NCBI GenBank assembly: GCA_964596735.1
Contig: CAZQVF010000003.1
Coordinates: forward strand, 42,611-106,610
Length of the DNA: 64,000 nucleotides
Source of the DNA: an uncultured Gammaproteobacteria bacterium
Lineage (GTDB): Bacteria > Patescibacteriota > Patescibacteriia > UBA2591 > UBA6264
Reading direction: 5' to 3'
Position numbers and translations under genes: made by a program. Shown here piece after piece: positions 955 through 52,911 of this stretch (its first letter is position 1; the number at the start of each line of letters is the position of its first letter). A model generated the notes under the pieces. The model saw only the letters and a list, made by a program, of their open reading frames with translations. It was not told where the DNA came from and did not search any database.

Positions 955-973
955 GCTCTAATTTTACCACATC

Positions 974-4255: not shown

Positions 4256-4268
4256 ATGGTTTGTTAAA

Positions 4269-4290
4269 GCGCCCCTGAATAACGGGGCGC
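4269..4290 (+). terminator. Hairpin gcgcccc-tgaataa-ggggcgc.
   Basis: A 7-bp GC stem after the ORF. The T-tract is weak. Confidence 0.35.
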
Positions 4291-4356
4291 TTCACATTTA
4301 CAAACTTAAACTTATTTGTTAAATTAACAACATATCTTACAAACTATTTAAAAAAT

Positions 4357-4803: not shown

Positions 4804-4872
4804 AACAAAAAATGCTCTTTTTAAAAGCATTCTTGTTATTAAATTATTATTACCAAATAATATAATATATTA

Positions 4873-5922: not shown

Positions 5923-5926
5923 AAAA

Positions 5927-7893: not shown

Positions 7894-7900
7894 AACCTTT

Positions 7901-8887: not shown

Positions 8888-8896
8888 AAAATTAAT

Positions 8897-11278: not shown

Positions 11279-11314
11279 ATTAATTCAAGAAATATATATT
11301 ATTCAAAGGCGAAT

Positions 11315-11339
11315 CAAGGTTCTGCGAAGCAGGTTCTTA
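11315..11339. repeat. Intergenic motif copy 1: CAAGGTTCTGC-gaa-GCAGGTTCTTA. It overlaps the pheS stop codon.
   Basis: Near-identical to copies at 16942-16966 and, in reverse complement, at 57115-57147. Confidence 0.6.
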
Positions 11340-12359: not shown

Positions 12360-12745
12360 GCCTTGTACTTTTTACGCGAAGAAAGAAAGAAAAATTCTAA
12401 AAACATTAAAAATAAGAGTAAAAACACACCATTCCACCATCTTAAAATACCTAGATTCTGCAACAAAAATAAACCGACAACTAAAAAACTTAACCAGATT
12501 CCCTGGCGGAAAGACGCTTCTACTTGTTTAAAAACCGGCCCCTTGTTTAAGCGAGTTCGGACAAGAAAGCCAATGATTGCTGCCGTTCCCACAATAGCCA
12601 AGAACAAACTAAAATAAAACAAGACAAAACCAATTAACCCTGTTTCTTTTGGATTAACAAAAAAAATAACAAAAACCCAGGCTAACCAACAAATAATGGT
12701 TAAAATGCTCATTAAATTAAGGTATTTTTTCAAAGTCATAAACAA
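12356..12745 (-). CDS. Hypothetical membrane protein, 129 aa, 3-4 TM.
   Basis: Hydrophobic ORF with a 4-nt overlap onto the pheS start. Confidence 0.4.
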   Translation of the reverse strand: MFMTLKKYLNLMSILTIICWLAWVFVIFFVNPKETGLIGFVLFYFSLFLAIVGTAAIIGFLVRTRLNKGPVFKQVEASFRQGIWLSFLVVGLFLLQNLGILRWWNGVFLLLFLMFLEFFFLSSRKKYKA

Positions 12746-12797
12746 AAGATAAATAATAAAGTAATTTAATTATAACATGTTTTAAAACTCTGGCAAT

Positions 12798-15700: not shown

Positions 15701-16844
15701 CTATTCGCCAACCTACATCATCTCGTCTCATTAAATAAACATAATAGTATTTTTTCTCTCTTGAAACACGGGGCGTAAAGCAAAACATTTTATGATTATC
15801 AGTAACTTGAACCCTGTATCCTTTCTTTGTTTTAAAAGTAAGCATTTTTGCTTTCTTTTTTCTTTTAAAGACTTTATTTACTTTTGAATAACTTAAATAA
15901 CCCTTGCCTACTGCTGTAGCAACTAAAGCGCCCTTTTTTATCTGATCTATCCTCTGAGTACCCCTTTTTGTTTGAACTAAAGTGTTACCAGGCAAACATT
16001 GGTCATCGTCAGAAACAGCGGTCATGTTATTCTTGGGCTGAGCCAGCATCTGCAGTAATTTATACTGGGCCCAGTTAGTGTCTTGAAACTCATCAACTAA
16101 GATATATTTAAACTGCTCTTGGTATTTTTTCAAAATCTGCGGTCTTTTTTCAAAAAGCTTTAAAGTGTAATTTATTAAATCACCAAAGTCCAAGGCATTG
16201 TTTTCTAAAAGCAATTGCTGATAAGTATGATAAGCATTGGCAATTTCTTTTAAACGGCTGGTTTCCTGGTCAAGCAATTCATCTGACATGCTCGTGTCTT
16301 TGTCTAGTTTTAAATTCTCCACATAATCTAAATATTCTTCCGGACTAATTAACTCATCTTTGGCCCGAGAAAAATGTTTAACCAGACTTTGGATAAACTT
16401 AGTCGGATTGCCCAAGGGCCGGTAATAATCCAAGTCAAACTTGTCAAAATTGTCCTGAACTAAAAAGCTTTGTTGGGCCTGATTTAATAATTTAAAATTC
16501 AGAGGCAGGCCAATATCTAAGGCATGCTGTTGCAAGATTCTTTCACAAAAGGAATGAAAAGTGGAAATCCATAAATCAACATAGCCATAAGGAAGCAACT
16601 TATCTATTCTCTCTTCCATTTCCTGAGCCGCTTTATCAGTAAAAGTTAAAGCTAAAACCTGGTCTGTCTTGACCAGATTACTCAAAATCAACCAAGCCAC
16701 CCGCCTGGTAATAACAGTTGTTTTGCCTGTACCGGCTCCGGCAATAATTAATAAAGGGCCTTGTCCATGAGTTACTGCTTTTTTTTGCTCAGAATTAAGC
16801 CCTTTTAAAATTTTATTACCTAATTCTTTTTCTGACATATGCAT
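12798..16844 (-). CDS. UvrD/PcrA-family helicase interrupted by an intein, with a C-terminal Cys-cluster nuclease-like domain.
   Basis: Walker A AGAGTGKTT and DEFQD motif II. An intein is inserted in motif III between DDDQ and SIYKFRGA. The C-terminus has Cys residues (CKFCDFYNIC) resembling the AddB/Cas4-type FeS nuclease cap. Confidence 0.85.
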   Translation of the reverse strand: MHMSEKELGNKILKGLNSEQKKAVTHGQGPLLIIAGAGTGKTTVITRRVAWLILSNLVKTDQVLALTFTDKAAQEMEERIDKLLPYGYVDLWISTFHSFCERILQQHALDIGLPLNFKLLNQAQQSFLVQDNFDKFDLDYYRPLGNPTKFIQSLVKHFSRAKDELISPEEYLDYVENLKLDKDTSMSDELLDQETSRLKEIANAYHTYQQLLLENNALDFGDLINYTLKLFEKRPQILKKYQEQFKYILVDEFQDTNWAQYKLLQMLAQPKNNMTAVSDDDQCLPGNTLVQTKRGTQRIDQIKKGALVATAVGKGYLSYSKVNKVFKRKKKAKMLTFKTKKGYRVQVTDNHKMFCFTPRVSREKKYYYVYLMRRDDVGWRIGTTNNLAVRLKLERSADKILAIKACQSEEEARFYETLYSLKYGIQTTCFKERDRVMIKGDWMIKLYKKINVEDGARRLARDLKIDLSAHHYSLDAVNRGSKLRIKINFDMCKRRYRSKYDKDGFLTNPLIRHQASVETSDKRTINKLRKAGFNLTKARKGYRFKAESKDIKKIGKIAEKLQKVTGGILENGFTVGKTNIVFQKALIMPASNVLQGLYLPVATKRNGVIYDQVIEVKEEIKNLTVYDLEIERSHNFVANGIVVHNSIYKFRGASYNNVLQFKKDYPKTEQVVLIKNYRSQQKILDLAYNFIQLNNPERLEAQDKDIIKKLKAEKKDKGEIRHLHLKTQEDEARAVIKKIIELKQKDEEASWNDFAILVRANHQAELFVQALRLANVSHQFLVRSGLFSKPVILDILAYLKLLDNYHESTAIYRVLTSPIFNKKISSNEVSHLINFANKKSWSVYEAMQKATSIFQLSKQTITQLNLFLSWIDKHTELAKTENVSKVVYAFLQDTGYLKILSNQEDSESVFWLNQFFKKIENFEAINFDKSVGAFIRLIDLMISTGDTGSIDAELEQGPESVKVSTIHSAKGLEFKYVFIVNLVDKRFPSIDRKEPIELPVDLIKEIIPQGDVHLQEERRLFYVALTRAKHSLYLTSAEDYGGKTLKKSSRFLYELGLVKKDKPIKVEEKTDVLTKPLVKQEEKQKTDIALPLRFSFSQFMAFNTCPLQYKFGFILRIPRQGRYVFSFGRSLHNTLYRFCQMWRGQKDVVQRDLFGEKKPQSKNQLSFDDLIKIYEQSWIEDWYDSKDHQEKYKGKGKQALKMFYHDFVQNKPNMKYLEKQFNFKLDKYIIRGVIDRVDETDQGYEIIDYKTGQNKASLGFEKKQQLYLYQLAAQHLHEAFDKPVHQLTFYYLESGERISFLGKDDDLKKVEENAIKTIEKIKKGDFPAQPSRMCKFCDFYNICQYRQE
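14910..15998 (-). mobile_element. Intein, about 363 aa, from Cys at aa 283 to His-Asn at aa 644-645, inside the helicase gene.
   Basis: N-terminal CLPGNTLV (block A), C-terminal HNFVANGIVVHN followed by the +1 Ser (block G). Its size implies an embedded homing endonuclease domain. Confidence 0.75.
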
Positions 16845-16941
16845 ATTTTAACATAAAAAAAAGAGCCTGACAAAGGGATAATTTTAAGAAAAATTATTAT
16901 AATTAAATTACTTTATTATCTATATAATAAATATTTAATTT

Positions 16942-16966
16942 CAAGGTTCTGCGTAGCAGGTTCTTA
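16942..16966. repeat. Intergenic motif copy 2: CAAGGTTCTGC-gta-GCAGGTTCTTA. It overlaps the tatD stop codon.
   Basis: Same motif as at 11315-11339. Confidence 0.6.
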
Positions 16967-17749
16967 TAATTTAAATAATTTTTTTGCATTTTTAGTGGTT
17001 TGATCAACCACTTGATCAAAGGTAAGATTTTTAATCTCAGAAATTCTCTGAGCTATAAAACGGACATAAACAGGCTCGTTTCTCTGTCCGCGATAAGGCT
17101 CGGGAGCTAAAAAAGGACAATCAGTTTCTAATAAAATCCTGTCTAAAGGACTTTTTTCCACCACTTGTAAAAGCCCTGGAGTAGCATTTTTAAACGTAAT
17201 CGGACCGGTAAAACCGATGTAAAGACCAAGATTTAAAAACTCTTGTCCAATAGACCAATCAGCAGAAAAACAATGAATCACTCCTTTGGGAATTTGTTTT
17301 AAATCTTTAATTATCTCTAATAATTCCAAATAAGCATTATTGGGATTATCCTTGTTCCCCCGGCAATGAAGAATAACTGGCAAATCATGTTCCTGAGCTA
17401 ATTTAATATGTTGCAAAAATACTTTTTTTTGCAAATCTCGACTATCTTGATGATGATAAAAATCCAAACCTGTTTCCCCTATGGCCTTAATCTGGTCTTT
17501 GTTTTCTTTGATTAATAAATCAAGTTTTTCTTTGTCAAAATCCTCATCTTTAACATGAATGGGATGAAGTCCAATGGCAGAAAAACAATTTTCAAATTCC
17601 TGACTTATTTTAACCGCCTTCTTGCTGGTTTCCAGGTTTGACCCAACACTAATTACGGCTTTTAGTCCTTGGTTAAAATTATGCTCAATTACCTGAGCAT
17701 AATCATTTTTAAATATTTTAAAATTTAAATGGGCATGGGTGTCAATCAT
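16964..17749 (-). CDS. tatD: TatD-family metal-dependent deoxyribonuclease / hydrolase.
   Basis: MIDTHAHLNF N-terminus and the TIM-barrel hydrolase pattern. Confidence 0.85.
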   Translation of the reverse strand: MIDTHAHLNFKIFKNDYAQVIEHNFNQGLKAVISVGSNLETSKKAVKISQEFENCFSAIGLHPIHVKDEDFDKEKLDLLIKENKDQIKAIGETGLDFYHHQDSRDLQKKVFLQHIKLAQEHDLPVILHCRGNKDNPNNAYLELLEIIKDLKQIPKGVIHCFSADWSIGQEFLNLGLYIGFTGPITFKNATPGLLQVVEKSPLDRILLETDCPFLAPEPYRGQRNEPVYVRFIAQRISEIKNLTFDQVVDQTTKNAKKLFKL

Positions 17750-20761: not shown

Positions 20762-21000
20762 ATATTTTAAATTAAATTGTTTAATTAACTATGATAGCCC
20801 AACCTTTATATTAACTATCTATTATAAGCATATACCCATAACTATCTTTTGTCAAACTAGTACCTGTGGATAAGTCTATCATTCAAAACTACATTAAATT
20901 TTAATTATAAATAAAAAAACGCGTTGCAATTTTACAACAACGCTAAATCATAAATAGCTTTCCACTATTTAAAGTAATAATTTCCAATAAACTATTTTAT

Positions 21001-23930: not shown

Positions 23931-24692
23931 TTAAACCTCACTGCCTTCTCCGCTAATTAACTTTCTGTAAACACAGTATTCACATTCTTCTCCAGGAGAA
24001 GGAATTTTGTTTGAATCTAAACAACTTTTAATTTCAAAAATAGTCTGCTCGACCCAAGAGTCATCGCCCTGATGAGAAATAATCGAGAGTTCAAATTCTA
24101 ATCTGCCATCAAATTTTGGTCGATTTCTGCCAGCATTAGCATAAACAAAATATCCTGTGTCACTAACTCTAAATCCATTCTGCCTAAAAATCCATTGATA
24201 AACTTCTATCTGTTTCTTGAATGTCTGTTTATATTCATCTTCTAAAGAAATTACTTTATTGGTACTGGTAGATTTATAATCAACAATTAAAAGTTCTTCT
24301 TTTTTATTTATCCAAATATCATCAATGATCCCACATATTTCAAGGTTTGTCTTTTTGTGTATGGTGGAAGCACCAACGAATTTATATACGTCGTCTCGCC
24401 AAATATGCAGATCGGGGTGACTAAAAGGGATCGCATCAATTTTATATTTTCTCATCAACTCATGAGTTTGATTACCTTCCCTTAATAGATCAAATTCATT
24501 CTTTAATAACTGGTCTACTGCACTATTTAACGACCAGCCGGGCATGCTAGGACGGCCTAATCCAAGTTTTCTGTCTAAATAAAAACATCTCTGACATTCT
24601 AAAAACAAACCAATCTTCGTCCGACTAATTCGAAAAGGTTCTTTGGAATTAGAATTGTATAAATTCTTTTGTCGTTTTCTATACTTATTCAT
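23931..24692 (-). CDS. Cas4/RecB-like PD-(D/E)xK nuclease with a four-Cys cluster.
   Basis: N-terminal CQRCFY, internal IVDYKS (D...K catalytic core) and C-terminal CEYC. This is the Cas4-like FeS nuclease architecture. Confidence 0.5.
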   Translation of the reverse strand: MNKYRKRQKNLYNSNSKEPFRISRTKIGLFLECQRCFYLDRKLGLGRPSMPGWSLNSAVDQLLKNEFDLLREGNQTHELMRKYKIDAIPFSHPDLHIWRDDVYKFVGASTIHKKTNLEICGIIDDIWINKKEELLIVDYKSTSTNKVISLEDEYKQTFKKQIEVYQWIFRQNGFRVSDTGYFVYANAGRNRPKFDGRLEFELSIISHQGDDSWVEQTIFEIKSCLDSNKIPSPGEECEYCVYRKLISGEGSEV

Positions 24693-24713
24693 CTTATTTT
24701 CTCGATTTTTTAA

Positions 24714-25475
24714 TTAAATTTTCGGGGACAGTCCTTTTAATTTAGGTTTGGCTAAACCATTCAAGTTATAAATAGTTTTTTTAATTAAACCAAGGCATTG
24801 CTGAATACTATGGTAAATCTCTTTTCCAGAAAATCTTAAAACACGCCAGCCATAACTGGTTAATTGATTGTTTCGTTTTCTGTCCCTGGCCAAAGCGTCA
24901 GGTAAAATGTGATATTTTTCACCATCACATTCAACATCAATGTTTCCTTTGTTACAAAATATTCCAAAATCTAAACAATAAAATTGATTATTAACTTTAA
25001 CATACACCTGCCTTTCAGTATCTATTTTATGTATTTTCATCATCTGATACATTTTTTCTTCTAATGGACTAGTATCGTATAAATCATTGATTTCTTTTGC
25101 TGTAAATAGTTTTTGTCGGCTGGTCGGAATATGAACAATCATTCTCCACTTTTTGCTCGGAATTGCTTGTGGCAACCTTCTAATCTGTCCTAAATGAAAT
25201 TGATAGTAATTCTCTTGAGCGTTTCTGTGTTCCAACTCTTTTGGAAAAAGCTGGATTCTTTTAATAGTGTCTATATTTGAAACCTTGGCATAATAAACTA
25301 CTTTATACTGATATTCTTCGCCAAAAGCCTTTGGGAAATAAAAAGCTATATACTCTGTCGCCGGAGTATTTTTAGGAGCTGATTTAACCGGGATGTGATA
25401 CCATTTCTTTTTCTGAATTATTGGCCAGAGACTCTTTCTAGGCACAATCCCGACTAAGGCTGGTTGTTTTCGCAT
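24714..25475 (-). CDS. Protein with a C-terminal DUF559 (Vsr-like endonuclease) domain.
   Basis: IDVECDGEKYH...RDRKRNNQLTSYGWRVLRFSGKEI matches the DUF559 restriction-endonuclease-like fold. Confidence 0.55.
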   Translation of the reverse strand: MRKQPALVGIVPRKSLWPIIQKKKWYHIPVKSAPKNTPATEYIAFYFPKAFGEEYQYKVVYYAKVSNIDTIKRIQLFPKELEHRNAQENYYQFHLGQIRRLPQAIPSKKWRMIVHIPTSRQKLFTAKEINDLYDTSPLEEKMYQMMKIHKIDTERQVYVKVNNQFYCLDFGIFCNKGNIDVECDGEKYHILPDALARDRKRNNQLTSYGWRVLRFSGKEIYHSIQQCLGLIKKTIYNLNGLAKPKLKGLSPKI

Positions 25476-25572
25476 AATTTTATTTATGAATTAAATTTTT
25501 AGGTTTTTGTTGTCAAATTTCCGCCAGAGGCGGATCCACTTTCAGCGGAAGCTTTATTTTAAGAACCGTCCC

Positions 25573-26067
25573 CTATTCTCTAGGAAAATTTTTTATAAAA
25601 GTTTGTATTGTGTTTATTATTTCTGTTTGATTTTTGTCGATCAAATCAATTTTTAAATTCAATATCTTTGCCTCACTAGCAATATTTTCAAATTCTCTAA
25701 ATTGCTGTTCCTGAATTGATATCGGATGTCTTAACTGTATCAGGGCGGTTACAATTACTACCGTTAAAGAAAAAATAATAGCTATAATACCAAAAATTTT
25801 GGCTTGCCTGAGCTGTTGATATTCTAGTAATCTAAACCTACCCTCGATAGATATCGTCCATATCGTTTCTCCTCCTGTTTTTGTAATTTCTGTTTTGCGA
25901 GTATTATAAACAAGCAATTTACCATATATAAGTTCCCCGACCCATAAATCTTTTTCATTTTGATTAAAGTTTAAGTCCTTCATGATCTGTCCCGAGGTAA
26001 ACTCTCTATGCTTTTGCGCATATTTTAGAATTTGGATATGTATATTTTTTCTTATTTTAGTACTCAT
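25573..26067 (-). CDS. Hypothetical protein with one TM helix.
   Basis: ORF only; possible N-terminal wHTH. Confidence 0.3.
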   Translation of the reverse strand: MSTKIRKNIHIQILKYAQKHREFTSGQIMKDLNFNQNEKDLWVGELIYGKLLVYNTRKTEITKTGGETIWTISIEGRFRLLEYQQLRQAKIFGIIAIIFSLTVVIVTALIQLRHPISIQEQQFREFENIASEAKILNLKIDLIDKNQTEIINTIQTFIKNFPRE

Positions 26068-26258
26068 ATTTCATATCTTTTTCTCAATTAAATTTTCGGG
26101 TTATTTTTATTCTCTGACCAGGTCGGACCTGTAAGGAAGTTTCATTCTTGGTTTTTGCTATTACCCAGCCATTTATTTCTTAACTCGTAATATTTAGCCC
26201 TCATTTAAAATTTCTTTCAATTTCCAAAAGATACTGCCCCCTTCACGAATAAGATCAT

Positions 26259-26900
26259 CTATAAGCTTCTCTGAATTGCTTTGTTTATATTGTTAGAAAT
26301 TTTAGAAAAATGTTTAGAAATCTTATTATATAATAATTGAATCCTACATGTGTCATCTACCATATCAATAGTATGATAAAAAAGTTTAAATAAAATTATA
26401 AAAGTTGAGAATAAGAAAATAAATGTAATACTATACTCTATAAAAATCCAATTACTCCTGTATGGTAAAAATGAAAATGAAAATATTATTATAGAAAATG
26501 CCGCTAACGTCCAGAATGAACCGATATAAATAGGATCGCGACGAAACTCAGATAAAACTTTCGTAGTACCTCTATCAGCTGCGTGCTGTATGCTAAAAAC
26601 CGCTAACGAAAACGCGATTGTTATTACCCCTACGATTGATGCCGCTACAGTAAAAAATAATTGGCCACCACTATTCGTCGACGCTTTTAATAAATAAAAA
26701 TTGATTTTATCCCAATGTAAAATGATAAAAAAAATACAAATAGAAAAAAATAATATCAATAAAATACTAAAGAAACTTATAATAAGTATCCTGTAAAAAT
26801 AATTTTTCACTAAATATAAGCTTAATTTTTTGATAATTATATCTATTTTTTTATAAAATTTTGAAGTCATGTTAGTTAAAAAATTAATAAATTTTTTCAC
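26259..26900 (-). CDS. Hypothetical multi-pass membrane protein.
   Basis: About 5 hydrophobic segments. Confidence 0.4.
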   Translation of the reverse strand: MKKFINFLTNMTSKFYKKIDIIIKKLSLYLVKNYFYRILIISFFSILLILFFSICIFFIILHWDKINFYLLKASTNSGGQLFFTVAASIVGVITIAFSLAVFSIQHAADRGTTKVLSEFRRDPIYIGSFWTLAAFSIIIFSFSFLPYRSNWIFIEYSITFIFLFSTFIILFKLFYHTIDMVDDTCRIQLLYNKISKHFSKISNNINKAIQRSL

Positions 26901-27498
26901 TTTGTTCTTGATTAATCAAATTAGAAAGCTGAATGTCAAACAATTCTTCTAGTTCTCGTTTTTCGATAATTCTTTTCCTATTAACATTTGGATTCGTATT
27001 TTCTCTATATAAACACTCATTCTTTCCTAAAAATAGAATCACACCAACCTCTTTTGTGCTGTTGTCATGGCCGCTAAAAAATGTACTTGGCCGACCGGCA
27101 AGGATCCACTTCCCATTAATCTTCCTATAAGTTTTTGAACCTCTAAGAGTATATTCGATAATATCTCTGGGAATATCTGCCATTCTTGTCCTTAAAAGGA
27201 GTATGCTTTTATAATTAGGATAATTGACAAATTTCTTATTAGCATCTTTTAGGTCTCCTTTAAACTGTCTGCCTTTTTGATTAGATTTTACCTCTATTAT
27301 AGAGGGATAACAAGTCTTACTTAGCGAATCCATTTTAAATACTGTATCGTCTTTAATTTCTATAACAATTTTGATATCGTCATTGACGATATCTGCCTTT
27401 TTGCCAACAAATTTATCAATATCACCATCTCTCCAACCAGGGTTTAAGACATTTAATTTTTTTATTAATTTTTCTTTGAATTCTTGTTCTGTAATCAT
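26884..27498 (-). CDS. Hypothetical protein, possibly a PD-(D/E)xK nuclease fold.
   Basis: ADIVNDDIKIVIEIKDD resembles a D...ExK catalytic core. Overlaps the downstream gene by 17 nt. Confidence 0.3.
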   Translation of the reverse strand: MITEQEFKEKLIKKLNVLNPGWRDGDIDKFVGKKADIVNDDIKIVIEIKDDTVFKMDSLSKTCYPSIIEVKSNQKGRQFKGDLKDANKKFVNYPNYKSILLLRTRMADIPRDIIEYTLRGSKTYRKINGKWILAGRPSTFFSGHDNSTKEVGVILFLGKNECLYRENTNPNVNRKRIIEKRELEELFDIQLSNLINQEQSEKIY

Positions 27499-27500
27499 TT

Positions 27501-28031
27501 TTAATCTAAACTTTTATTCTTTAAATTTAACTTTCCCTTATTTTCCTCTTTTAAAAACACATAAAAATAAGGTTTGCTATTATTATCCAAAATAATTCTT
27601 GCCTTTAGTTCCCCCAATCTGATCATCTTTTTGACCGTCTGATAATGGAAACCAAATTTATCCTTTAATTGCCACATTGCATACCAAATATCACTATCGT
27701 GACAAACTTTAGAGGAAATAATACCTTGATCTAATGCTTTTTGACATAAAAGACATTTGATTCCGTTTTTATCATACCAACTAGTTTTACCCTGAACAGA
27801 ATTTCCACAAATACAACAATTATAAATTTCTGATTCTGGTAAATGAAAACCTTTGGGATGTTGTTTTAATTTCTTTTTTCTAATTTTATCTCTAACGTTA
27901 ATTTTGTGTAAAATTTCAAAAGAATTAACAAGCCTTGTTCCTTGTTCTAAAGCTTCTTCGTCAGAAATTTCCTTACCAAATTCCTTTTTATAAATCCTTT
28001 TATATTCTTCTATAGATTTTTTTGAAAGCAT
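27501..28031 (-). CDS. Hypothetical Zn-ribbon protein.
   Basis: CCICGN...CLLCQ cysteine pairs. Confidence 0.35.
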   Translation of the reverse strand: MLSKKSIEEYKRIYKKEFGKEISDEEALEQGTRLVNSFEILHKINVRDKIRKKKLKQHPKGFHLPESEIYNCCICGNSVQGKTSWYDKNGIKCLLCQKALDQGIISSKVCHDSDIWYAMWQLKDKFGFHYQTVKKMIRLGELKARIILDNNSKPYFYVFLKEENKGKLNLKNKSLD

Positions 28032-28145
28032 ATTTCTTGTTTAATTAGATTAATTAAATCTCCTTCTCCCTTCAATCCCTTTAATCTACCTGACAAAATC
28101 CCTAATCTATGGTTTACATCTTCGACTAACTTTTTACAAATAAAA

Positions 28146-29609
28146 TTATATTATGTCTAACGATAATCCGTGGCATTTCTTATATTTCTTCCCTGAACCA
28201 CAAGGACATTTATCATTTCTGCCAACTTTAGGAATTTGCTTTTCAATTACATCGGGAAATTCTTTATCATGAATTTTATAAAAAGTTGGGTCCGTAAGTA
28301 TTCCTAATTCTATCTTCAATTCATCTGCTCCTTTTTGCATCTTTTCATTCCAATGCCTCCCATCAAGATAAATCGCATCTTCTGACCTTCCTCTCAACTC
28401 TTTTCCTGACTCTGTCGCAAATCCAATAATATCTTTAGCTTGTTGATAAACTCCGCGGAGTACCATACAACAAGCTTCTAAATATTCTCCTCTAAATAAC
28501 CGATATTCTTCTTCTGTTTGTCCTTCTTTTTTGGGAAAAGCAACGAAGACATAATAGGGATCATCTTTGTTTAAAGGTATACTAAATCTTCTTCCGCAGA
28601 TATTTCCTGAAGTTTTTTCAACTAATCCTAAAATAGCTTTGGATAGGATTCTTCTCTTAAATCGAGATTCACTTGCAAAAAATCGCATCACTTTTTCTGA
28701 ATCCTTTATGCCCCCAGCAGATACCGTATATTGAGTACCAGCTAAAGCGTTAATATTGAATTCTTCTATCAGCGCATCCCAAAAATAACTTATTTTATCT
28801 TCTTTTAATTGGGCTTTTCTTTGAGGATTATTGCAAAAATTATCCCAAACTCCTTCGACGATCGCTATTCTGTCTGAATCTGTTGGAAAATCAAAATCAT
28901 GCACCCCATCTTTTATTTTAGTTAAGTAGGATGGTAATAAATTTTCCTCTCCCGTTACTAATATAACCTTATCAGAACGTAAAAGAATTTCCTTTTTAGA
29001 GAAATAGGAAACTAAATCAGATATTGTATCGAGCGTGCTCATTACAATATCTAGTGTTGTGTCATCTAATACGTGAATAAATGTCTTCGAAGGATTAATA
29101 TCTCCAATAAAAAATGGTATTGTATGTGAAGTAATACCTTTTATGTCGTTTTCTATTATTAAGCTTCCACTGCCGCCACCAAAACATTTCTTGCAAGCAC
29201 CAGATACACCATGTGCAACTAGTATTAAATGGATTTTTACTTTATGAGCATTAATGTCAAAGGGGAAAGACTCTTTGCATTTTTTATCTAAAAAAACACT
29301 TTCTGGATGTTGCTTTATCCACTGTTCGGCTCTCCATAGTTGTTTGGCAGATTTTTCAACAGTTCTTCTAAACCATCTACTCCAGTTAAGTTCGTCGTTA
29401 GTAGTTTCTGGATATTTGCATGCTTTATCAGAAAAAATCAATATATGATTCCCAAAAACAACGAATAGGTCAGATAATTCTTTCCCTTTTGCTCGATATA
29501 GGTTTGGATAACTCCACAATGAAAGAAAAGTCTTATTACAAAGTTTAGCTAAATACTCTTCCGATTTATTCAGACCAGTATTTTTTGTGATTGCCTCGTG
29601 TTTTCGCAT
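28146..29609 (-). CDS. SEC-C motif protein with an N-terminal nuclease-like domain, 487 aa.
   Basis: C-terminal [14 protein letters not shown] (SEC-C metal-binding motif). The N-terminal [16 protein letters not shown] resembles a NERD/PD-(D/E)xK core. Confidence 0.45.
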
Positions 29610-29642
29610 AAATGTTTTTTTGTATCTTGTGGATAACTCTTA

Positions 29643-29671
29643 TTGTCTCTTCGGTCAATCTTCGGTATAAT
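29643..29671 (+). promoter_or_regulatory. Promoter TTGTCT-17-TATAAT whose spacer carries a direct repeat TCTTCGGT x2, a candidate operator.
   Basis: -35 at 29643-29648 and -10 at 29666-29671. The spacer is cttcggtcaatcttcgg. Confidence 0.45.
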
Positions 29672-29707
29672 CATATTATAAAATAATATCTAAATAAGTC
29701 AAGACTT

Positions 29708-31249
29708 ATGGCAACACTAACAAAGCGACAAAAACAAATTTACGACTATATTAAAAATTACATAGAAACAAAAAGTATCTCCCCCACTTTTGACGAAATA
29801 AGAAAACGTTTTAAACTTTCTGCGCTTTCAACTGTTCATCAACATATTGAAGCACTAATCACTAAAGGATTTTTAATAAAAAATAATAAACTTACTCGCG
29901 GGATAGAATTAATAAAAAAAGACGAATTGATTAAAGTTCCCTTTGTTGGGGCCATCACTGCCGGTCAACCAATCGAAGCTATTGAAAACAGAGAAGAATC
30001 AATTGCCATTTCAAAAAATAAACTTCCGCGTTCGGGAGAATTTTTTGCACTCAAAGTCATGGGAGATAGTATGATTGACGAAAATATTAACGACGGGGAT
30101 GTCGTCTTAATAAAAAAACAATGCGTTGCTAGTAATGGAGAAAAAATTGTAGCACTAATTGATAATCGTGAAGCAACACTCAAATCTTTCTATAAAGAAA
30201 GGGATCAAATTCGTTTACAGCCAGCAAACAAAAAACTTAAACCAATTATAATTAAAGATGGTGAAAAAGAAATAATAATACAAGGGATAGTAATAGATAT
30301 AATTAAGAATATAAATCCCGAAAAGAAGATAGAAAAAGAAAAAGAAAAAAAAATTAAAGCTAAAAGAAAAAACAAATTACCTCTAAATAAAATTATATTA
30401 GGAGACACTGTAAAAGAATTAAAAAAACTACCAAGTGAGAGTTGCGACATTATAATAGCTGATCCCCCTTATAATATCGGTAAAAATTTTGGAAATAATA
30501 TTGATAAAAGAGAATTAAGTGAATATATAGAATGGTCTAAAGAATGGATTAATGAATGTATAAGATTAATGAAACCAACAGCTACAATGTTTCTTTATGG
30601 ATTTAGCGAAATTTTAGCTCATATTTCAGTAGAAATACCAATAAATAAAAGATGGGTTATCTGGCATTATACTAACAAAAATGTAGCTTCGCTGAACTTC
30701 TGGCAAAGAAGTCATGAGTCAATTATCTGTGCATGGAAAGATAAAAGAATATTTAATAGAGATGAAATAAGGGAACCATATACCATTGGATTTTTAAATG
30801 GAGCAGCTGGAAAAATCAGAAAAGGGACAAAAGGAAGATTTAGTAATTCTGGGAAAACTACAATTTATAAGGCTCATGAAAAGGGGGCTTTGCCAAGAGA
30901 TGTAATAAAAATTCCCGCTCTGGCCGGAGGAGCTGGTATGAATGAAAGATGGTTCTTATGTAAAACATGTGATGAAGTTTTTGGACCAAGAAAATTGAAA
31001 GAGCACAAAGATCATAAAATAATTAAACACCCTACCCAAAAACCCCTTGAACTATCAAAAAAAATAATAAAGTCTTGTATGCCTAAAAAATATGGGGTAG
31101 TATTGGTTCCATTTGTTGGTAGCGGTTCTGAATGTGTAGCTGCCAAAGAACTCGGACAAAATTATGTTGGTTTTGAAATTAATCCAGAATATATAAAAAT
31201 TGCTCAAAAATTTTTGAGCAACACAAAATTCAAACAAAAATTATTTTAA
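29708..31249 (+). CDS. LexA/S24 autopeptidase repressor module fused to an N6-adenine / N4-cytosine DNA methyltransferase (PF01555-like).
   Basis: N-terminal wHTH, Ala-Gly cleavage site ITAGQP, Ser in MGDSM and Lys in TLKSF (S24 dyad). A Lys-rich linker follows. Then DPPYN (motif IV), HPTQKP and C-terminal VPFVGSGSE (motif I). Confidence 0.7.
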   Translation: MATLTKRQKQIYDYIKNYIETKSISPTFDEIRKRFKLSALSTVHQHIEALITKGFLIKNNKLTRGIELIKKDELIKVPFVGAITAGQPIEAIENREESIAISKNKLPRSGEFFALKVMGDSMIDENINDGDVVLIKKQCVASNGEKIVALIDNREATLKSFYKERDQIRLQPANKKLKPIIIKDGEKEIIIQGIVIDIIKNINPEKKIEKEKEKKIKAKRKNKLPLNKIILGDTVKELKKLPSESCDIIIADPPYNIGKNFGNNIDKRELSEYIEWSKEWINECIRLMKPTATMFLYGFSEILAHISVEIPINKRWVIWHYTNKNVASLNFWQRSHESIICAWKDKRIFNRDEIREPYTIGFLNGAAGKIRKGTKGRFSNSGKTTIYKAHEKGALPRDVIKIPALAGGAGMNERWFLCKTCDEVFGPRKLKEHKDHKIIKHPTQKPLELSKKIIKSCMPKKYGVVLVPFVGSGSECVAAKELGQNYVGFEINPEYIKIAQKFLSNTKFKQKLF

Positions 31250-31936
31250 TAATTTATCAATTTCTTCTTTCTTTTTTTCAAAAATAAAAGGAGTAAAAAC
31301 TACAAATCCATTTGGCAATCTTTTCAATTCTTTGTTTTGAATGAATCTTAAATAGGGTAATTTATATTCTCCATTCAATTTTTTGGGGTTTGTAAAATAA
31401 TCTTCGCTCGGAACCTCATATTTAATATCAATAAATTCGCCTTCAATTTTATTTTTTGTCTCCTTAGCTTTCCTAACTTCCCTGCTAAACGACTTTTTCT
31501 TTACCTGATAATTTAATATTTTATTTTTATAATTTACTTGAAAATCAGCTCCTCGATGATCTAGTTCTGCTGACATCTTTACTGTATTTTCTCCAAAAAT
31601 AAACTCTGCAACATAACCAGCGTGTATCTGTGTAATAATACTAGCCCAAGTTCTGTATATCCTGGCTGGAAGACCTTTATAAAAACATGTTTCACACATT
31701 GTAATTTTCTCTCTAAATTTTTCAATCTTCTCTTTATAATTATTTAAATATCTTTTACAAAATCTATCAAAATCTAAAAATTCTTTTTCATCCCAATATA
31801 CTTTATAAAGCAATTCAATGGCTTGTATTTCTTTTGGCATATCCATTTCAACAATTTTAATAGGTTTATATTTTTTGCGATAATTATTAAGATTGATTGA
31901 TTCTAAAAATTCCTCAAAATTTTTTACTAAATACAT
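31241..31936 (-). CDS. Candidate type II restriction endonuclease partner of the MTase.
   Basis: Convergent with the MTase, 3' ends overlapping by 9 bp. No clear family motif is recognisable; the call rests on gene context. Confidence 0.35.
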   Translation of the reverse strand: MYLVKNFEEFLESINLNNYRKKYKPIKIVEMDMPKEIQAIELLYKVYWDEKEFLDFDRFCKRYLNNYKEKIEKFREKITMCETCFYKGLPARIYRTWASIITQIHAGYVAEFIFGENTVKMSAELDHRGADFQVNYKNKILNYQVKKKSFSREVRKAKETKNKIEGEFIDIKYEVPSEDYFTNPKKLNGEYKLPYLRFIQNKELKRLPNGFVVFTPFIFEKKKEEIDKLLK

Positions 31937-32091
31937 ATAAAATAAATTATTTTTATAAATCGCGGTTATCTTAACATGTCGTTAAAATCTATAATTAAAA
32001 ATATAATTACTCTTCATATAAATTCTAGAACAAAAATTTAATAAGTCAAGTTTTAAAAAACAAAAAGTTTTTTTAGTATTAATGTCTAAGT

Positions 32092-33453: not shown

Positions 33454-34776
33454 ATGCAAAAAGAAAACTTTAAAATCATTCAAGTTCCTATTAAGGACTT
33501 GTCTCCTGCTCTATATAATCCAAGAAAATGGAGTAAGGAAGCAATTAGTCAACTTAAAGAAAGTATCACAAAATTTGGACTAGTCGATCCAATAATAGTG
33601 AACAAACATAAAGGTCGGGAAAACATAATTATTGGTGGACATTTCAGAGTGAAAATAGCAAAAGATTTGGGTATTAAAGATGTCCCCGTCTACTATATTG
33701 ATTTAAACGAAAAGCGAGAAAAAGAACTAAACCTAAGATTAAATAAAGCAACTGGTGAATGGGACTGGAATCTTCTTGCTGATTTTGATGAAAACTTTTT
33801 ATCAGATGCTGGTTTTTCAAGTGAAGAATTAGACGAAATATTTGACATTGAAGACAATCCCGAATTATTCGACTTAGAGAAAGAATTAAGAAAACTTGAT
33901 ATTAAAAATATAAAAATCAAAAAGGGCGATGTTTATGAATTGGACGGCAATAGATTAATGTGCGGCGATTCCACAATAGAAAAAGATATAAAAAAACTAA
34001 TGAATGAACAAAAAGCAGATATGTGTTTTACAGACCCTCCTTATTTATTAAATTATTTAAAGGGAAAAAAGAAAAACGGCAAAGCAACCGAAGGATTTGG
34101 ATATAAAAGAAACAGAAAATATTTAGAAACAGATGTTATTCCTCCCGACTTCACTGAAAAGTGGATGGCTAATATCCATAAAATACAAAAAGACGATTTT
34201 GCTATTATCGTCTACGAAAACTGGAAAAATATAAGAACTATTTGGAATGAAATGGAAAAATATTGGAAGGTAAAGAATATGCTTGTCTGGCATTTGAGTA
34301 ATAGAACCCAAGGCTTTGCTGCAAAATACAAATTCTTTTCTAAGTATGATATAGCCATGCTCGGATATTCAGGTGGCGTAAATCTTAATACAAAAGAAGA
34401 GCCAGAAAAAATTCAAAATGAATATGAGGCTGCTCTGTTCGCCATATCTGGAAAGCCACATTGGGAAAACTACAAAAAAGGTAAAAAATATTGTCCAACT
34501 GATTTTGTTGAATACCGAGCATCTGATGAAAAAAGTTCTGGGCAGGGAATAATTTTTGGCACCAAGCCAGTGGAAATATTAATTCCATATATAAAGGTCT
34601 TGACCAAAAGGAATGATTTGATTGTTGAGCCATTCGGGGGCAGTGGAAGTACTTTGATGGCTGCCATCAAAATGAAAAGAAGATGCTACTTGATAGAAAA
34701 ATCACCTGTTTATACAGAGGTGATTAAAAAGAGATGGGAAAATTTTACTGGCAAAAAAGCCAAAAAAATCGATTAA
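33454..34776 (+). CDS. ParB-like nuclease domain fused to a DNA methyltransferase (phage-type ParB-MTase).
   Basis: N-terminal ParB/Srx-like PALYNPRKW...GGHFRV, central TDPPY and C-terminal EPFGGSGSTLMAA. Confidence 0.75.
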   Translation: MQKENFKIIQVPIKDLSPALYNPRKWSKEAISQLKESITKFGLVDPIIVNKHKGRENIIIGGHFRVKIAKDLGIKDVPVYYIDLNEKREKELNLRLNKATGEWDWNLLADFDENFLSDAGFSSEELDEIFDIEDNPELFDLEKELRKLDIKNIKIKKGDVYELDGNRLMCGDSTIEKDIKKLMNEQKADMCFTDPPYLLNYLKGKKKNGKATEGFGYKRNRKYLETDVIPPDFTEKWMANIHKIQKDDFAIIVYENWKNIRTIWNEMEKYWKVKNMLVWHLSNRTQGFAAKYKFFSKYDIAMLGYSGGVNLNTKEEPEKIQNEYEAALFAISGKPHWENYKKGKKYCPTDFVEYRASDEKSSGQGIIFGTKPVEILIPYIKVLTKRNDLIVEPFGGSGSTLMAAIKMKRRCYLIEKSPVYTEVIKKRWENFTGKKAKKID

Positions 34777-34803: not shown

Positions 34804-35211
34804 ATGAAGAATGATGCAGAAATAAAAAAGAAATTAATTGAAGAATTAAAAAAAACGCCAATAGTGCAGATAGCTTGTTTAAAAGTGAATATTAGCAGAG
34901 CTACCTATTATCGCTGGCGTAAAGACGATAAAAAATTCAGCCGAATGACCGATAAAGCAATTTTAGATGGTTCACTATTAATCAACGATTTAGCAGAAAG
35001 TCAATTAATTAGTGCAATTAAAGACAAAAATATAACATCACTAATCTTTTGGCTCAAGAATCATCATCCTACTTATGCGACAAGGATCGAAGTAATGGCG
35101 CATTTAAAATCCTCCTCTGATGAGTCGTTAACGCCAGAACAACAGACTCTTGTTAAAAAAGCGCTTAAGCTGGCAAATTTACCTAATAAACTTAATAAAA
35201 ATAACGAATAA
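34804..35211 (+). CDS. HTH-domain protein, possibly a terminase small subunit.
   Basis: VQIACLKVNISRATYYRWRKDDKKF helix-turn-helix. Confidence 0.35.
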   Translation: MKNDAEIKKKLIEELKKTPIVQIACLKVNISRATYYRWRKDDKKFSRMTDKAILDGSLLINDLAESQLISAIKDKNITSLIFWLKNHHPTYATRIEVMAHLKSSSDESLTPEQQTLVKKALKLANLPNKLNKNNE

Positions 35212-35215
35212 TTAT

Positions 35216-36670
35216 ATGAACATTAATACAAATATAATGGATCAAACTTTGATCAAAAAAATTATTAACGACCGCAAAGTTCGTGTTGCTATTGCGCGTC
35301 AAAGTCACCTTTGGTTCTTTAATATCTATTTTTCTAATTACGTCATAAACGAAACTGCTCCTTTTCAGAAAGAAATGTTTAATTTAACCGAAAATGAGTT
35401 AAATAAACTCGCAGTTATTGTTGCATTTAGAGGTTCAGCCAAGTCAACAATTATGACTATGTCATATCCAATATGGTCAATTCTTGGCAACCAGCAGAAA
35501 AAATTTGTACTGATTATCAGCCAAACACAAGAACAGGCTAGACTACATCTTAAAAATCTAAAAAACGAACTTGAAAGAAATAAGCTCTTGAAAACTGATC
35601 TCGGACCATTTGAAGAAAACGATGACTGGAGAAGCTACTCACTTGTTATACCAAAGTACAACGCTAGAATTACAGCGGCTTCAATTGAGCAAAGTATACG
35701 CGGCATCAGACACGGCGAACACAGGCCCGATCTCATAATTTGTGATGATATAGAAGATCTTAATTCAGTTAAAACACGTGAAAGTAGAGACAAAACTCAT
35801 CAATGGCTTAGGGGAGATGTAATTCCTGCCGGAGATAAAAACACAAAAATTGTCTTAGTGGGAAATCTCCTTCATGAGGATTCTGTATTAATGAGACTAA
35901 AACAAGATATTGATGAAGGAAGGCTTGCCGGAATATACAAACGATATCCATTACTTGACGAAAATAATCAAAGTTTATGGCCCGGAAAATATAATACAGT
36001 AAAAGATATAGAAATATTGAAACATACCATTGGCGATGAAATTGCTTGGCAAAGAGAATTTCTTTTACGCATCGTTCCTAATACAAATCGTGTTGTTCAG
36101 TCAGATTGGATCAATTATTATGAACATTTATCTGAAAATAAAAATGAACTACTTTGCGTCCTTACTGGCATTGATCTCGCTATAGCCGAGAAAGATAGCT
36201 CTGATTATACCTCAATGGTCTCCGCTAGAGTCTATATTCATAATAATAAACTGTGTATATATATCCTTCCCAATCCAGTAAACGAACGCATGGACTTTGC
36301 CAAGCAATTAGAAAAAGCGAAATTTCTTTCTAAAAGCCTTGGTGATGGATATCCAACTCGACTTTTAGTTGAAGACGTAGGCTATCAAAAAGTATTTATC
36401 CAGCAATTACAAAAAGATGGATTCCCCGCTGAATCATTTCACTTAGAAGGTCGAGATAAACGATCACGACTTATGTCAACTACTCATCTTATTCAATTAG
36501 GGAATGTTCTTTTCCCTAAACATGGAGCAGAAAAATTAATTGAGCAACTTGTAGGTTTTGGAGTTGAAAAACATGATGATTTAGTTGATGCTTTTACCAT
36601 GATTATCCTCCAGATTTTGAAGGAACGCCCCTACGAAATTGACGTAAAAACTTTAGTTTTTTCTGTATAA
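35216..36670 (+). CDS. Phage terminase large subunit. The track ORF starts at 35150; an internal ATG at about 35216 is the likely start.
   Basis: Walker A-like AFRGSAKST, Walker B DLIICDD and a C-terminal RNaseH-like nuclease region. Confidence 0.6.
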   Translation: MNINTNIMDQTLIKKIINDRKVRVAIARQSHLWFFNIYFSNYVINETAPFQKEMFNLTENELNKLAVIVAFRGSAKSTIMTMSYPIWSILGNQQKKFVLIISQTQEQARLHLKNLKNELERNKLLKTDLGPFEENDDWRSYSLVIPKYNARITAASIEQSIRGIRHGEHRPDLIICDDIEDLNSVKTRESRDKTHQWLRGDVIPAGDKNTKIVLVGNLLHEDSVLMRLKQDIDEGRLAGIYKRYPLLDENNQSLWPGKYNTVKDIEILKHTIGDEIAWQREFLLRIVPNTNRVVQSDWINYYEHLSENKNELLCVLTGIDLAIAEKDSSDYTSMVSARVYIHNNKLCIYILPNPVNERMDFAKQLEKAKFLSKSLGDGYPTRLLVEDVGYQKVFIQQLQKDGFPAESFHLEGRDKRSRLMSTTHLIQLGNVLFPKHGAEKLIEQLVGFGVEKHDDLVDAFTMIILQILKERPYEIDVKTLVFSV

Positions 36671-36763: not shown

Positions 36764-38140
36764 ATGAATAATTATAAAACTATGGATTACCAAAAAACAA
36801 CATTAAATCAAGGTTTAAGTGCGACCAGTCCCCTATCAACAGAAGAAGCGCCTGTTAAATATTGTCTTTACGCGAGAAAATCAACTGAAGACGATGAAAA
36901 ACAGGCGCTTTCCATTGATTCCCAAATAAAAGAAATGGAAGAATTAGCAGAAAAAATAGGATTAGAAGTAGTGGAAACCAAAAAAGAATCTCATTCTGCT
37001 AAAAAATCGGGTGACCGTCCTATTTTTAATAAACTTATTGATGGAATCAAACAGGGATTGTATCAAGGAATCCTCACTTGGGCCCCGGATAGATTGAGTA
37101 GGAATGCTGGAGACTTAGGAATATTGGTAGATTTAATAGATTATGGACATTTGAGAGAAATAAGAACATACGGACAGAATTTTTCTAATAAACCAAATGA
37201 TAAATTCCTTCTTATGATCCTATGTAGTCAGGCAAAACTAGAAAATGACTGCAAAAGCGAAAACGTTAAAAGGGGCCTCAGGGCTAAATGCGCCATGGGA
37301 TGGCGACCCGGACTTCCCCCCTTGGGATATCTTCATGATAAATATGCAGACAAGGGAAAAAGAAAAGTACTTCTTGATCCGAAAAGAGCTCCGATAATAA
37401 AACAAATGTTTGAAAAGGTGGCTTATGAAAGCATGAGAGGAAGACAATTATTCCACTGGTTGAACTATAAGATAAAATTCAGAAGTCGGGCCGGTAAAAG
37501 AATTACCCTTAGCACTATTTACCAAATACTTAGTGAACATTTCTATTATGGAAAATTTGAATATCCTAAAGGTAGTAGTAATTGGTATAAAGGTGGATAT
37601 GAACCAATAATTACAGAAGAGCTATTTAATCAAGTCAGGGCTAAATTATTAGTCTCGCCAAGAAGACATCCGGGGACCAATGAATATGACTTTACTAAAT
37701 TATTTACTTGCGGAAACTGTGGATCGGGAATCACTGCTGAAGAAAAATTTAAAAAGATAAGCGACGGCACTCGCCGTCGCTATGTTTATTATCACTGTAG
37801 TAGATTTAAAAATGAAAAATGTAATGAAAAATATATTAGAGAAGAAGAATTACTAAAACAATTATTGGAAATCATAGATAAAATTGATGTAGATGAAATA
37901 AAATTAGAAACTAAAATGGAAAGAGAAATTATGAGATACCGCAAATTTTATTACGGAGTACTTAATCAAGATGGAAAAATCGAAAAAAGGCCCATTGATG
38001 TAGATATAAGAAATTATGCTAAATATGTTCTCATAGAAGGATCTAGAGATGAAAAAAGAGAAATATTAAATTGTCTAAGAAGCAAATTAGAGCTAAAAGA
38101 TAAAACGCTTTATTTAAAAATTACAGGAAAAATAATATAG
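36764..38140 (+). CDS. Large serine recombinase (phage integrase type).
   Basis: N-terminal resolvase catalytic domain YARKSTEDDEKQALSIDSQ, recombinase domain, Zn ribbon CGNCGSG...HCSRF and a coiled coil. Confidence 0.8.
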   Translation: MNNYKTMDYQKTTLNQGLSATSPLSTEEAPVKYCLYARKSTEDDEKQALSIDSQIKEMEELAEKIGLEVVETKKESHSAKKSGDRPIFNKLIDGIKQGLYQGILTWAPDRLSRNAGDLGILVDLIDYGHLREIRTYGQNFSNKPNDKFLLMILCSQAKLENDCKSENVKRGLRAKCAMGWRPGLPPLGYLHDKYADKGKRKVLLDPKRAPIIKQMFEKVAYESMRGRQLFHWLNYKIKFRSRAGKRITLSTIYQILSEHFYYGKFEYPKGSSNWYKGGYEPIITEELFNQVRAKLLVSPRRHPGTNEYDFTKLFTCGNCGSGITAEEKFKKISDGTRRRYVYYHCSRFKNEKCNEKYIREEELLKQLLEIIDKIDVDEIKLETKMEREIMRYRKFYYGVLNQDGKIEKRPIDVDIRNYAKYVLIEGSRDEKREILNCLRSKLELKDKTLYLKITGKII

Positions 38141-39704: not shown

Positions 39705-39778
39705 TGGCTCGGGGGTAGGGATTCGAACCCCAATTTACTGGACCAAAACCAGCAGTCCTGCCATTAGACGACCCCCGA
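39705..39778 (-). tRNA. tRNA-Gln(UUG).
   Basis: Cloverleaf with a U1-A72 pair, G73 discriminator, anticodon loop TTTTGGT, T-arm TGGGG-TTCGAAT-CCCTA and encoded CCA. Confidence 0.7.
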
Positions 39779-52864: not shown

Positions 52865-52911
52865 TAATCTGTGGATAATTTATTTGCCTTTTTTCCGTAT
52901 TTATGTATAAT

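Follow-up and report, generated by a model that had tools for sequence, protein, structure and literature searches.

LexA repressor modules fused to Type II restriction-modification methyltransferases in Patescibacteria: a candidate damage-responsive autorepressor

A 64,000-nucleotide stretch of DNA assigned to Patescibacteria (positions 42,611 to 106,610 of contig CAZQVF010000003.1, assembly GCA_964596735.1; hereafter, the window, numbered from its first nucleotide) encodes a Type II restriction-modification (R-M) cassette that consists of a TaqI-family endonuclease and a methyltransferase fused to a full-size LexA repressor. Among Type II R-M systems, this regulatory architecture is new, and it is widespread in Patescibacteria. 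The explanation that best accommodates the findings overall, and that we consider rather probable, is that the methyltransferase represses its own synthesis and would be derepressed after DNA damage by RecA-stimulated self-cleavage, with restriction alleviation as the outcome. An earlier examination of the same DNA, made from the letters without any database search (hereafter, the sequence-only reading), had singled out the fusion, its presumed partner endonuclease and a candidate operator, and did not recognize the architecture as an established one. A full-text search of the literature, the coverage of which does not extend to subscription papers or REBASE, likewise yielded no description of a LexA-methyltransferase fusion.

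The fusion protein and its LexA module

The fusion gene (29708..31249, plus strand) is a single uninterrupted open reading frame (ORF) of 513 aa in which Pfam searches identify three successive domains: LexA_DNA_bind (PF01726, residues 1-64, E 3.8e-13), Peptidase_S24 (PF00717, residues 78-196, E 2.2e-29) and N6_N4_Mtase (PF01555, residues 247-501, E 5.8e-36). Residues 1-202 match the whole length of the 203-position model TIGR00498, the LexA equivalog of NCBIfam, with a score of 177.5 bits against a cut-off of 110.95. At the level of sequence, the fusion is a LexA, and the intact LexA/S24 module that had been proposed for its N-terminus is confirmed. In an end-to-end BLASTP alignment with LexA of E. 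coli, Ala85-Gly86 corresponds to A84-G85, Ser121 to S119 and Lys159 to K156; the respective codons are located at 29960-29965, 30068-30070 and 30182-30184 on the plus strand. The Ser/Lys dyad, thought to be complete in the sequence-only reading, is indeed so. The Ala-Gly of the cleavage site is present as well, but the break had been placed after the Gly, and the bond has to be moved to the position between the two residues, VGAITA/GQPIEAIE.

Not one of the 80 orthologues of the fusion deviates from Ala85, Gly86, Gly119, Ser121, Met122 or Lys159, and these residues are the same in 45 of 45 distant fusions. The mean pairwise identity among the orthologues is 53% in the winged helix, 69% in the S24 domain, 40% in the linker and 80% in the methyltransferase. 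The invariance of both the scissile bond and the dyad argues for cleavage competence given that dimerization alone would require neither.

The C-terminal half of the protein contains the motifs DPPYN, HPTQKP and VPFVGSGSE, in columns that are invariant across 25 homologues, and DPPY (residues 252-255) precedes FxGxG (residues 469-473), which is the order typical of beta-class enzymes, so that the original assignment to the beta-class amino-methyltransferases stands. A search of solved structures tells the same story, with LexA structures covering the N-terminal 200 residues, and beta-class N6-adenine methyltransferases being the nearest relatives of the C-terminal half. The structure prediction for the fusion, obtained with an alignment of 25 sequences, was poor for the methyltransferase part (mean predicted local distance difference test score, 57.9) and supports disorder of the variable, Lys/Glu-rich linker (residues ~201-228) that connects the two modules. 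The methyltransferase part also includes a Cys-x2-Cys ... His-x2-His cluster (Cys418, Cys421, His433 and His436; window positions 30959-31015), invariant in 80 of 80 orthologues, which in sequence looks like a small zinc-binding insertion.

A probable direct-repeat operator in the promoter of the fusion gene

The promoter-like site of the fusion gene (P_M; TTGTCT-17 nt-TATAAT at 29643..29671, plus strand, with 10 of 12 consensus matches), confirmed where it had been noticed initially, has an equivalent in most of the orthologous loci. The spacer of P_M is filled by a direct repeat, TCTTCGGT-CAA-TCTTCGGT (29648..29666, plus strand), that has a period of 11 bp and touches the -10 hexamer. The set of orthologous loci comprises 80 loci with 3-5 kb flanks (77 of these are informative downstream of the fusion), and in 57 of the 80, the 110 nt ahead of the fusion contain an exact 7-mer repeated with a period of 11 bp, compared to 0.9% of the shuffled sequences. 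Period-11 repeats are found also in 37 of 41 promoters of diverse LexA-methyltransferase fusions and in 22 of 32 promoters of stand-alone lexA genes from the same scan and clade. Across the loci, the repeat usually takes up the promoter spacer and reaches the -10 hexamer.

The sequence of the repeat varies by cassette, with both copies changing jointly, and each version goes with particular recognition helices of the LexA module: TTTCTAT occurs with S-T-A-H-F-H, TTCGGT with S-T-V-H-Q-H or S-T-I-H-E-H, GCTCGGG with S-T-T-H-E-H, and TTCTAG with S-T-V-D-F-Y or S-T-V-S-H-Y. Thus, with the period maintained and the copies covarying both mutually and with the recognition helix, the direct repeat that had been suspected of being the operator very probably is the LexA operator, as judged by this comparison of sequences. 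In Alphaproteobacteria, direct-repeat LexA boxes with an 11-bp spacing, GTTC-N7-GTTC, are an established type (PMC8565304), and a direct-repeat motif is cited for Patescibacteria in another article (PMC7739468). Within the 64-kb window, no further operators were found besides the one in the promoter of the fusion itself (a looser pattern does not rise above chance), and no DNA-repair regulon of the fusion LexA is evident.

The cassette: a restriction-modification pair that is probably mobile

The second gene of the cassette (31241..31936, minus strand) converges on the fusion gene, the 3' ends of the two ORFs overlapping by 9 bp, exactly the arrangement described at the outset. It encodes a 231-aa Type II restriction endonuclease of the TaqI family (PF09573, RE_TaqI, E 2.2e-36, profile positions 2-218 of 229); a sequence search of this endonuclease against solved structures gave no match. 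A TaqI-family gene that converges on the fusion, with overlapping or abutting ends and 52-76% identity, is present in 67 of the 77 informative loci, a few of the copies being visibly decayed. Judging from this conserved pairing, the fusion and the TaqI-family endonuclease form an R-M pair in which the fusion is the M subunit, in accord with the role of a cognate endonuclease that had been surmised from position alone. The genes on either side of the pair in the window do not recur at other loci, and in about 17 orthologous loci, a tRNA gene adjoins the endonuclease gene. The R-M cassette behaves as a mobile unit, and in this Patescibacteria chromosome, it is lodged in an island of defence and mobile genes.

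In 25 of the orthologous loci, a classical controller (C) protein (72-75 aa, HTH_3 family) is encoded such that its gene ends just ahead of the endonuclease start and is preceded by palindromic C-boxes. No LexA-type repeats were detected ahead of the C/R operons of the orthologous loci, only C-boxes. The cassette in the window lacks the C gene with its C-box: the region 31937-32091 contains neither of these nor a LexA-type repeat. The endonuclease gene has a promoter-like site of its own (TTGACT-16 nt-TAGAAT, 32022..32049, minus strand) and, just past its stop codon and within the 3' end of the fusion gene, a low-confidence terminator-like hairpin followed by a T-run (31199..31222, minus strand).

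The TaqI-family gene is missing in ten loci (L009, L021, L024, L047, L051, L060, L061, L064, L069 and L074). In nine of these, its place is taken by an unrelated convergent ORF of about 200-270 aa; these ORFs belong to at least two sequence types, and the five that were scanned have no Pfam match. In the tenth (L009), the only sizeable downstream ORF is co-directional with the fusion and lies about 1.9 kb away. The replacement ORFs are possibly non-homologous endonucleases paired with the same methyltransferase.

The fusion is not an idiosyncrasy of one genome. In a scan of one genome per species, relatives are encoded in 294 species-level genomes, nearly all of them metagenome-assembled genomes of Patescibacteria; the few short contigs with other labels are probably mis-binned or carry default labels. 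The best 120 database relatives, which come from the NCBI, JGI, ENA and Logan assemblies, all share the same three domains, are 504-524 aa long and show 66-94% identity. The named relatives, from Parcubacteria, Moranbacteria, Jorgensenbacteria, Gribaldobacteria and similar groups, are annotated either as LexA ('transcriptional repressor LexA' at NCBI) or as adenine methyltransferase.

A LexA module shared by many methyltransferases

When residues 1-205 of the fusion were compared to 1.84 billion representative proteins, 324 representatives were retrieved at E < 1e-30, the closest of which are mostly long proteins that begin with the LexA part. All 45 relatives of at least 330 aa combine LexA_DNA_bind and Peptidase_S24 with a DNA methyltransferase, the families being N6_N4_Mtase (31), Eco57I (7), D12/Dam-type (5), N6_Mtase (5) and C5 cytosine methyltransferase (2). 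A metagenome scan yielded 42 diverse LexA-methyltransferase fusions, 34 of these with enough downstream sequence, and in 29 of the 34, a convergent ORF abuts the stop codon. By Pfam, these convergent ORFs include endonucleases of the TaqI (4), Bsp6I (4), MvaI/BcnI (2), EcoRV (1), R.Pab1 (1) and BsaWI (1) families as well as HNH-type proteins, and about half have no match. In a contig of Falkowbacteria (VMTK01000024.1, positions 913-6426; locus L037), two LexA-methyltransferase cassettes are adjacent, each with its own C protein: one is of the TaqI type, and the other combines a different methyltransferase with an MvaI/BcnI-family endonuclease.

Thus, to judge from the sequences, the LexA module is portable across DNA methyltransferase families, and its recurrence with many unrelated enzymes suggests a hitherto undescribed coupling of self-protection to DNA damage. 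Among the viral contigs of IMG/VR, there are hundreds of relatives of the methyltransferase domain, and the LexA part is present in none of the best 80. Among the plasmids of PLSDB (72,556 records) and the phages of GenBank (50,697 records), no protein covers 80% or more of the fusion, and only relatives of the methyltransferase domain were found. The viral relatives of this domain (residues ~225-505) show 48-60% identity to it, and many are labelled as metagenome-assembled genomes of giant viruses (GVMAG) or as very large phage contigs.

Two further conserved elements of the promoter region

The leftmost conserved element of the cassette is a DnaA-box-like 9-mer, TGTGGATAA (29628..29636, plus strand, exact match), the reverse complement of TTATCCACA, which we take to be the DnaA-box consensus. 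Of the 75 exact boxes counted across the orthologous loci (612 kb), 59 are located within 120 nt upstream of the fusion start. The box is present in 30 of the 41 promoters of diverse fusions versus 2 of the 32 promoters of stand-alone lexA, in either orientation, and upstream of the -35 hexamer, abutting it or in the leader. The box is constant where the LexA operator varies, which points to a host factor as its ligand, with DnaA being the obvious candidate. The possibility that the box is a general promoter element of Patescibacteria was considered and rejected: elsewhere, 16 copies were observed with 7.3 expected, in contrast to the 59 at fusion promoters. The window contains further exact copies at 20865-20873 and 52870-52878; the latter is situated just upstream of TTGCCT-N16-TATAAT, between hrcA-like and murG-like genes, and downstream of it, there is neither an ORF nor an Rfam match.

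The second element is a reverse promoter-like site (P_rev; TTGACT-16 nt-TATAAT, 29675..29702, minus strand) which, with 11 of 12 positions, is the best consensus match in the region. Transcription from P_rev, which is located within the leader of the fusion gene, would proceed leftward over the operator and the DnaA-like box. A site of this type with at least 10 of 12 matches is found in 65% of the 80 loci compared to 6% of shuffles, and in most of the loci with such a site, its -35 hexamer corresponds to the conserved GTCAA right before the ATG. An Rfam scan of the whole window detected tRNAs only, so that no known RNA accounts for P_rev or for the second site of the TGTGGATAA type. In the window, P_rev points at a divergent gene for a SEC-C domain protein (28146-29609). 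A role of P_rev in driving a functionally linked divergent gene was considered but is not claimed here: 49 of 81 loci have a divergent ORF that starts no more than about 140 nt away, near the 50% expected if neighbours in compact genomes are oriented at random. The upstream neighbours of the fusion are variable and often are of the types found in defence islands, namely trypsin-like peptidase, GIY-YIG, cyclase, SMODS-like nucleotidyltransferase, Schlafen AlbA_2, DUF3644, TIR, DUF4209 and SEC-C.

A scenario for damage-induced derepression and its competitors

What could be the function of a self-cleaving repressor on a modification enzyme? Under the scenario that we favour, the LexA winged helix would bind the 11-bp-period repeat in its own promoter such that the methyltransferase would repress its own synthesis, a step for which the comparison of loci provides strong support. 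When RecA filaments arise through damage, repair or self-restriction, RecA on single-stranded DNA would stimulate cleavage at Ala85-Gly86, which we infer from the conserved cleavage apparatus, and the DNA-binding domain would be parted from the S24-methyltransferase. P_M would then be derepressed, and the output of the methyltransferase would increase at the time when unmodified DNA is being made or when DNA is damaged, repaired or self-cut. Because the M and R genes converge with overlapping 3' ends, R may additionally be weakened by stronger transcription of M. On balance, this would amount to restriction alleviation in a Type II form and to a brake on autoimmunity, and the same circuit would provide for methyltransferase-first expression upon entry of the cassette into a naive host. 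Unbalanced R-M activity has been shown to induce SOS (PMC3874152), and damage along with repair creates unmodified sites, triggering Type I restriction alleviation (PMC4231737, PMC11109961).

Several considerations weigh against this scenario. The covariation of helix and repeat could stem in part from the shared descent of linked sequences. No recA gene is encoded in the 64-kb window, so the presence of the RecA co-protease is assumed. Derepression under phage-induced damage could help phage DNA evade restriction, which weakens the adaptive argument, and should the S24-methyltransferase fragment released by cleavage prove unstable, the effect would be the opposite of the one predicted. The TGTGGATAA box and P_rev are not accounted for by derepression. 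Finally, the likely target of the pair, TCGA, follows from the family of the endonuclease only; in the window, TCGA shows no more than a moderate depletion (observed/expected, 0.64), and this, together with the ten loci that have the same methyltransferase without a TaqI partner, leaves the target sequence unproven.

Could the LexA module be a mere dimerizing DNA-binding autorepressor that takes the place of a C protein or of the helix-turn-helix (HTH) of the SsoII type and stays uncleaved upon damage, so that we are dealing with an ordinary autoregulated cassette? Autoregulation through a DNA-binding domain borne by the methyltransferase is established for SsoII, Ecl18kI, EcoRII and ScrFI (references given in PMC3874152), the S24 domain provides the dimerization that is required by an operator with two half-sites, and self-cleavage of the fusion is deduced from conservation; moreover, IrvR is a RecA-independent LexA-like protein (PMC7101444). 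If this were the case, however, the Ala-Gly and the Ser/Lys dyad should drift, and yet both are invariant throughout the orthologues and the distant fusions while the neighbouring regions vary. Furthermore, C proteins already exist in 25 of the same cassettes, so the LexA module does not merely replace an absent regulator. We therefore regard an uncleaved autorepressor as unlikely.

A different outcome would ensue if cleavage inactivated or destabilized the methyltransferase, in which case damage, for example by a phage, would lower methylation and result in sharper restriction or in cell killing, akin to post-segregational killing or abortive infection. The cleaved fragments of E. coli LexA become protease substrates, and the N-terminal fragment of the fusion would end in ...ITA or ...IAA, resembling the exposed VAA of E. 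coli LexA. Once methylation drops, R-M systems kill cells (PMC3874152). Nevertheless, the promoter is inevitably derepressed once the DNA-binding domain is lost, which counters depletion, the catalytic domain of the methyltransferase would remain intact and joined to the dimerization domain, and loss of methylation acts only after replication, too slowly for an acute response. Depletion of the methyltransferase thus appears to be an improbable outcome of cleavage.

The fusion might also be the main SOS repressor of the cell, with control of repair genes as its principal function and the link to restriction secondary. Its score exceeds the TIGR00498 cut-off, orthologues bear the name 'transcriptional repressor LexA' at NCBI, no other lexA gene is present in the 64-kb window, and a stand-alone, AT-rich LexA locus (L213) has an operator of the same type, TTCGGT-N5-TTCGGT. 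It is hard to see, though, why a repressor with such a function would travel with an endonuclease as a cassette, between unconserved flanks and often beside tRNA genes, why operator sequences would differ among cassettes, two of which can adjoin, and why the only operator in the window would be at the promoter of the fusion itself; in addition, the fusion is found in only 294 species-level genomes. This makes a global SOS role very unlikely. The trivial explanation, that the fusion is an artefact of assembly, frameshift or gene calling that joined two genes, can be dismissed because the ORF is uninterrupted, the same 502-525-aa architecture recurs on hundreds of independent contigs from NCBI, JGI, ENA and Logan, and the database search that had been called for found it in the 294 genomes and in thousands of database proteins.

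The damage-induced derepression scenario can be extended to a broader and more speculative proposal, in which we place somewhat less than an even measure of confidence. A dedicated clade of LexA modules in Patescibacteria might have been joined repeatedly to unrelated Type II methyltransferases as a damage-cleavable switch that, when RecA filaments form, would raise methylation and, via convergent transcription, lower restriction. This would be the first restriction-alleviation or anti-autoimmunity circuit of the Type II kind, and the DnaA-box-like site would be a second input, tying expression to the initiation of replication.

Genomic surroundings of the cassette

The window resembles a Patescibacteria chromosome, with genes for PheRS, DnaK, TopA, LepA, MurJ and HrcA. 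The island that harbours the cassette extends from about 20 to 39.7 kb, ends at a tRNA-Gln gene, and contains genes for PD-(D/E)XK and MTES_1575 nuclease-like proteins, a SEC-C protein, the cassette, a ParB-methyltransferase, a terminase-like gene and a serine recombinase. Upstream of the cassette is a defence-island-like cluster (23931-29609) that encompasses a PD-(D/E)XK nuclease (23931-24692), an MTES_1575/DUF559 nuclease-like protein (24714-25475), two ORFs without a Pfam match (26884-27498 and 27501-28031) and the 487-aa protein ending in a SEC-C motif (28146-29609). On the other side of the cassette, the segment 32092-39778 is a probable integrated mobile element that includes two HTH_Tnp-like small proteins, a ParB_N-methyltransferase fusion (33454-34776), the terminase-like gene (35150-36670), a large serine recombinase (36764-38140) and the tRNA-Gln gene (39705-39778).

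The distribution of TCGA along the window is uneven. At 1-17400, there is 1 occurrence versus 16.5 expected under a second-order Markov model; in the island, at 20-29.6 kb, there are 21 versus 23.1, that is, no depletion; and at 40-64 kb, there are 18 versus 21.6, a mild depletion. Over the whole window, GATC is depleted to the same extent as TCGA (0.63). Elsewhere in the window, a 1348-aa helicase-nuclease of the UvrD/AddA type (12798-16844, minus strand) is interrupted by an intein (Intein_splicing and Hint, residues ~278-645), and a 349-aa reverse transcriptase (RVT_1) is encoded at 2751-3800 on the plus strand.

Significance and relation to known regulatory systems

It is poorly understood by what means Type II systems spare their own host once its DNA has been damaged, repaired or recombined, and a damage-cleavable repressor on the methyltransferase, if our interpretation is correct, would be a compact solution. 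The recurrence of the fusion with N6-adenine (N6A), N4-cytosine (N4C) and C5-cytosine (C5) enzymes suggests strong selection. The fusion is also an instance of LexA being employed beyond the SOS regulon, in the form of a portable sensor-regulator module carried by an enzyme. The fusion also offers a testable handle on gene regulation in uncultured Patescibacteria, with assays being possible on recombinant protein, and the matched recognition helices and operator repeats comprise a natural data set for deciphering the code of DNA recognition by LexA.

Among the closest precedents are the SsoII-type systems, whose methyltransferases are C5 enzymes that carry a short HTH but lack a protease; there, R is transcribed divergently from a shared control region, and the same binding that limits the methyltransferase activates it. 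As in the fusion, where the binding is inferred, a DNA-binding domain of the methyltransferase itself acts on an operator in its own promoter and limits synthesis in M.SsoII, M.Ecl18kI, M.EcoRII and M.ScrFIA (references in PMC3874152). Unlike these, the fusion includes a full LexA with an intact self-cleavage apparatus, a beta-class amino-methyltransferase and a convergent R gene. Furthermore, in contrast to the SsoII-type HTH, the LexA module is found on N6A, N4C and C5 enzymes alike. With the Type II systems that are controlled by C proteins, 25 of the orthologous cassettes share the C gene and the C-boxes upstream of R, and the cassette in the window is without a C gene. C proteins do not sense DNA damage. 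Where a C protein is present, it is on the R side, and the LexA module, to judge from the location of the repeats, controls the M side.

Among LexA proteins proper, the repressors that bind direct repeats resemble the fusion in full-length homology, the cleavage site, the Ser/Lys dyad and half-sites 11 bp apart, putative in the case of the fusion (PMC8565304; PMC7739468). The fusion differs from LexA/SOS repressors in being joined to an enzyme, in travelling with an endonuclease and in the diversification of operator specificity between cassettes. To our knowledge, restriction alleviation has been described for Type I systems only, and we are aware of no Type II equivalent. Type I alleviation serves the same purpose that we propose here, namely, the protection of the chromosome when damage, repair or recombination create unmodified sites (PMC4231737, PMC11109961). 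The means are different: in Type I systems, ClpXP degrades the restriction subunit HsdR, whereas in the fusion, cleavage of the repressor would raise the synthesis of the methyltransferase. A further parallel is offered by the self-cleaving or protease-cleaved repressors of mobile elements and defence systems, such as phage CI, SetR of integrative and conjugative elements and CapH/CapP of the cyclic oligonucleotide-based anti-phage signalling system (CBASS), where the repressor is eliminated upon a DNA-damage signal and an accessory element is thereby turned on. In all these cases, the repressor is a separate protein that controls lysogeny, transfer or an effector operon, whereas in the fusion, the repressor resides on the polypeptide of the enzyme itself.

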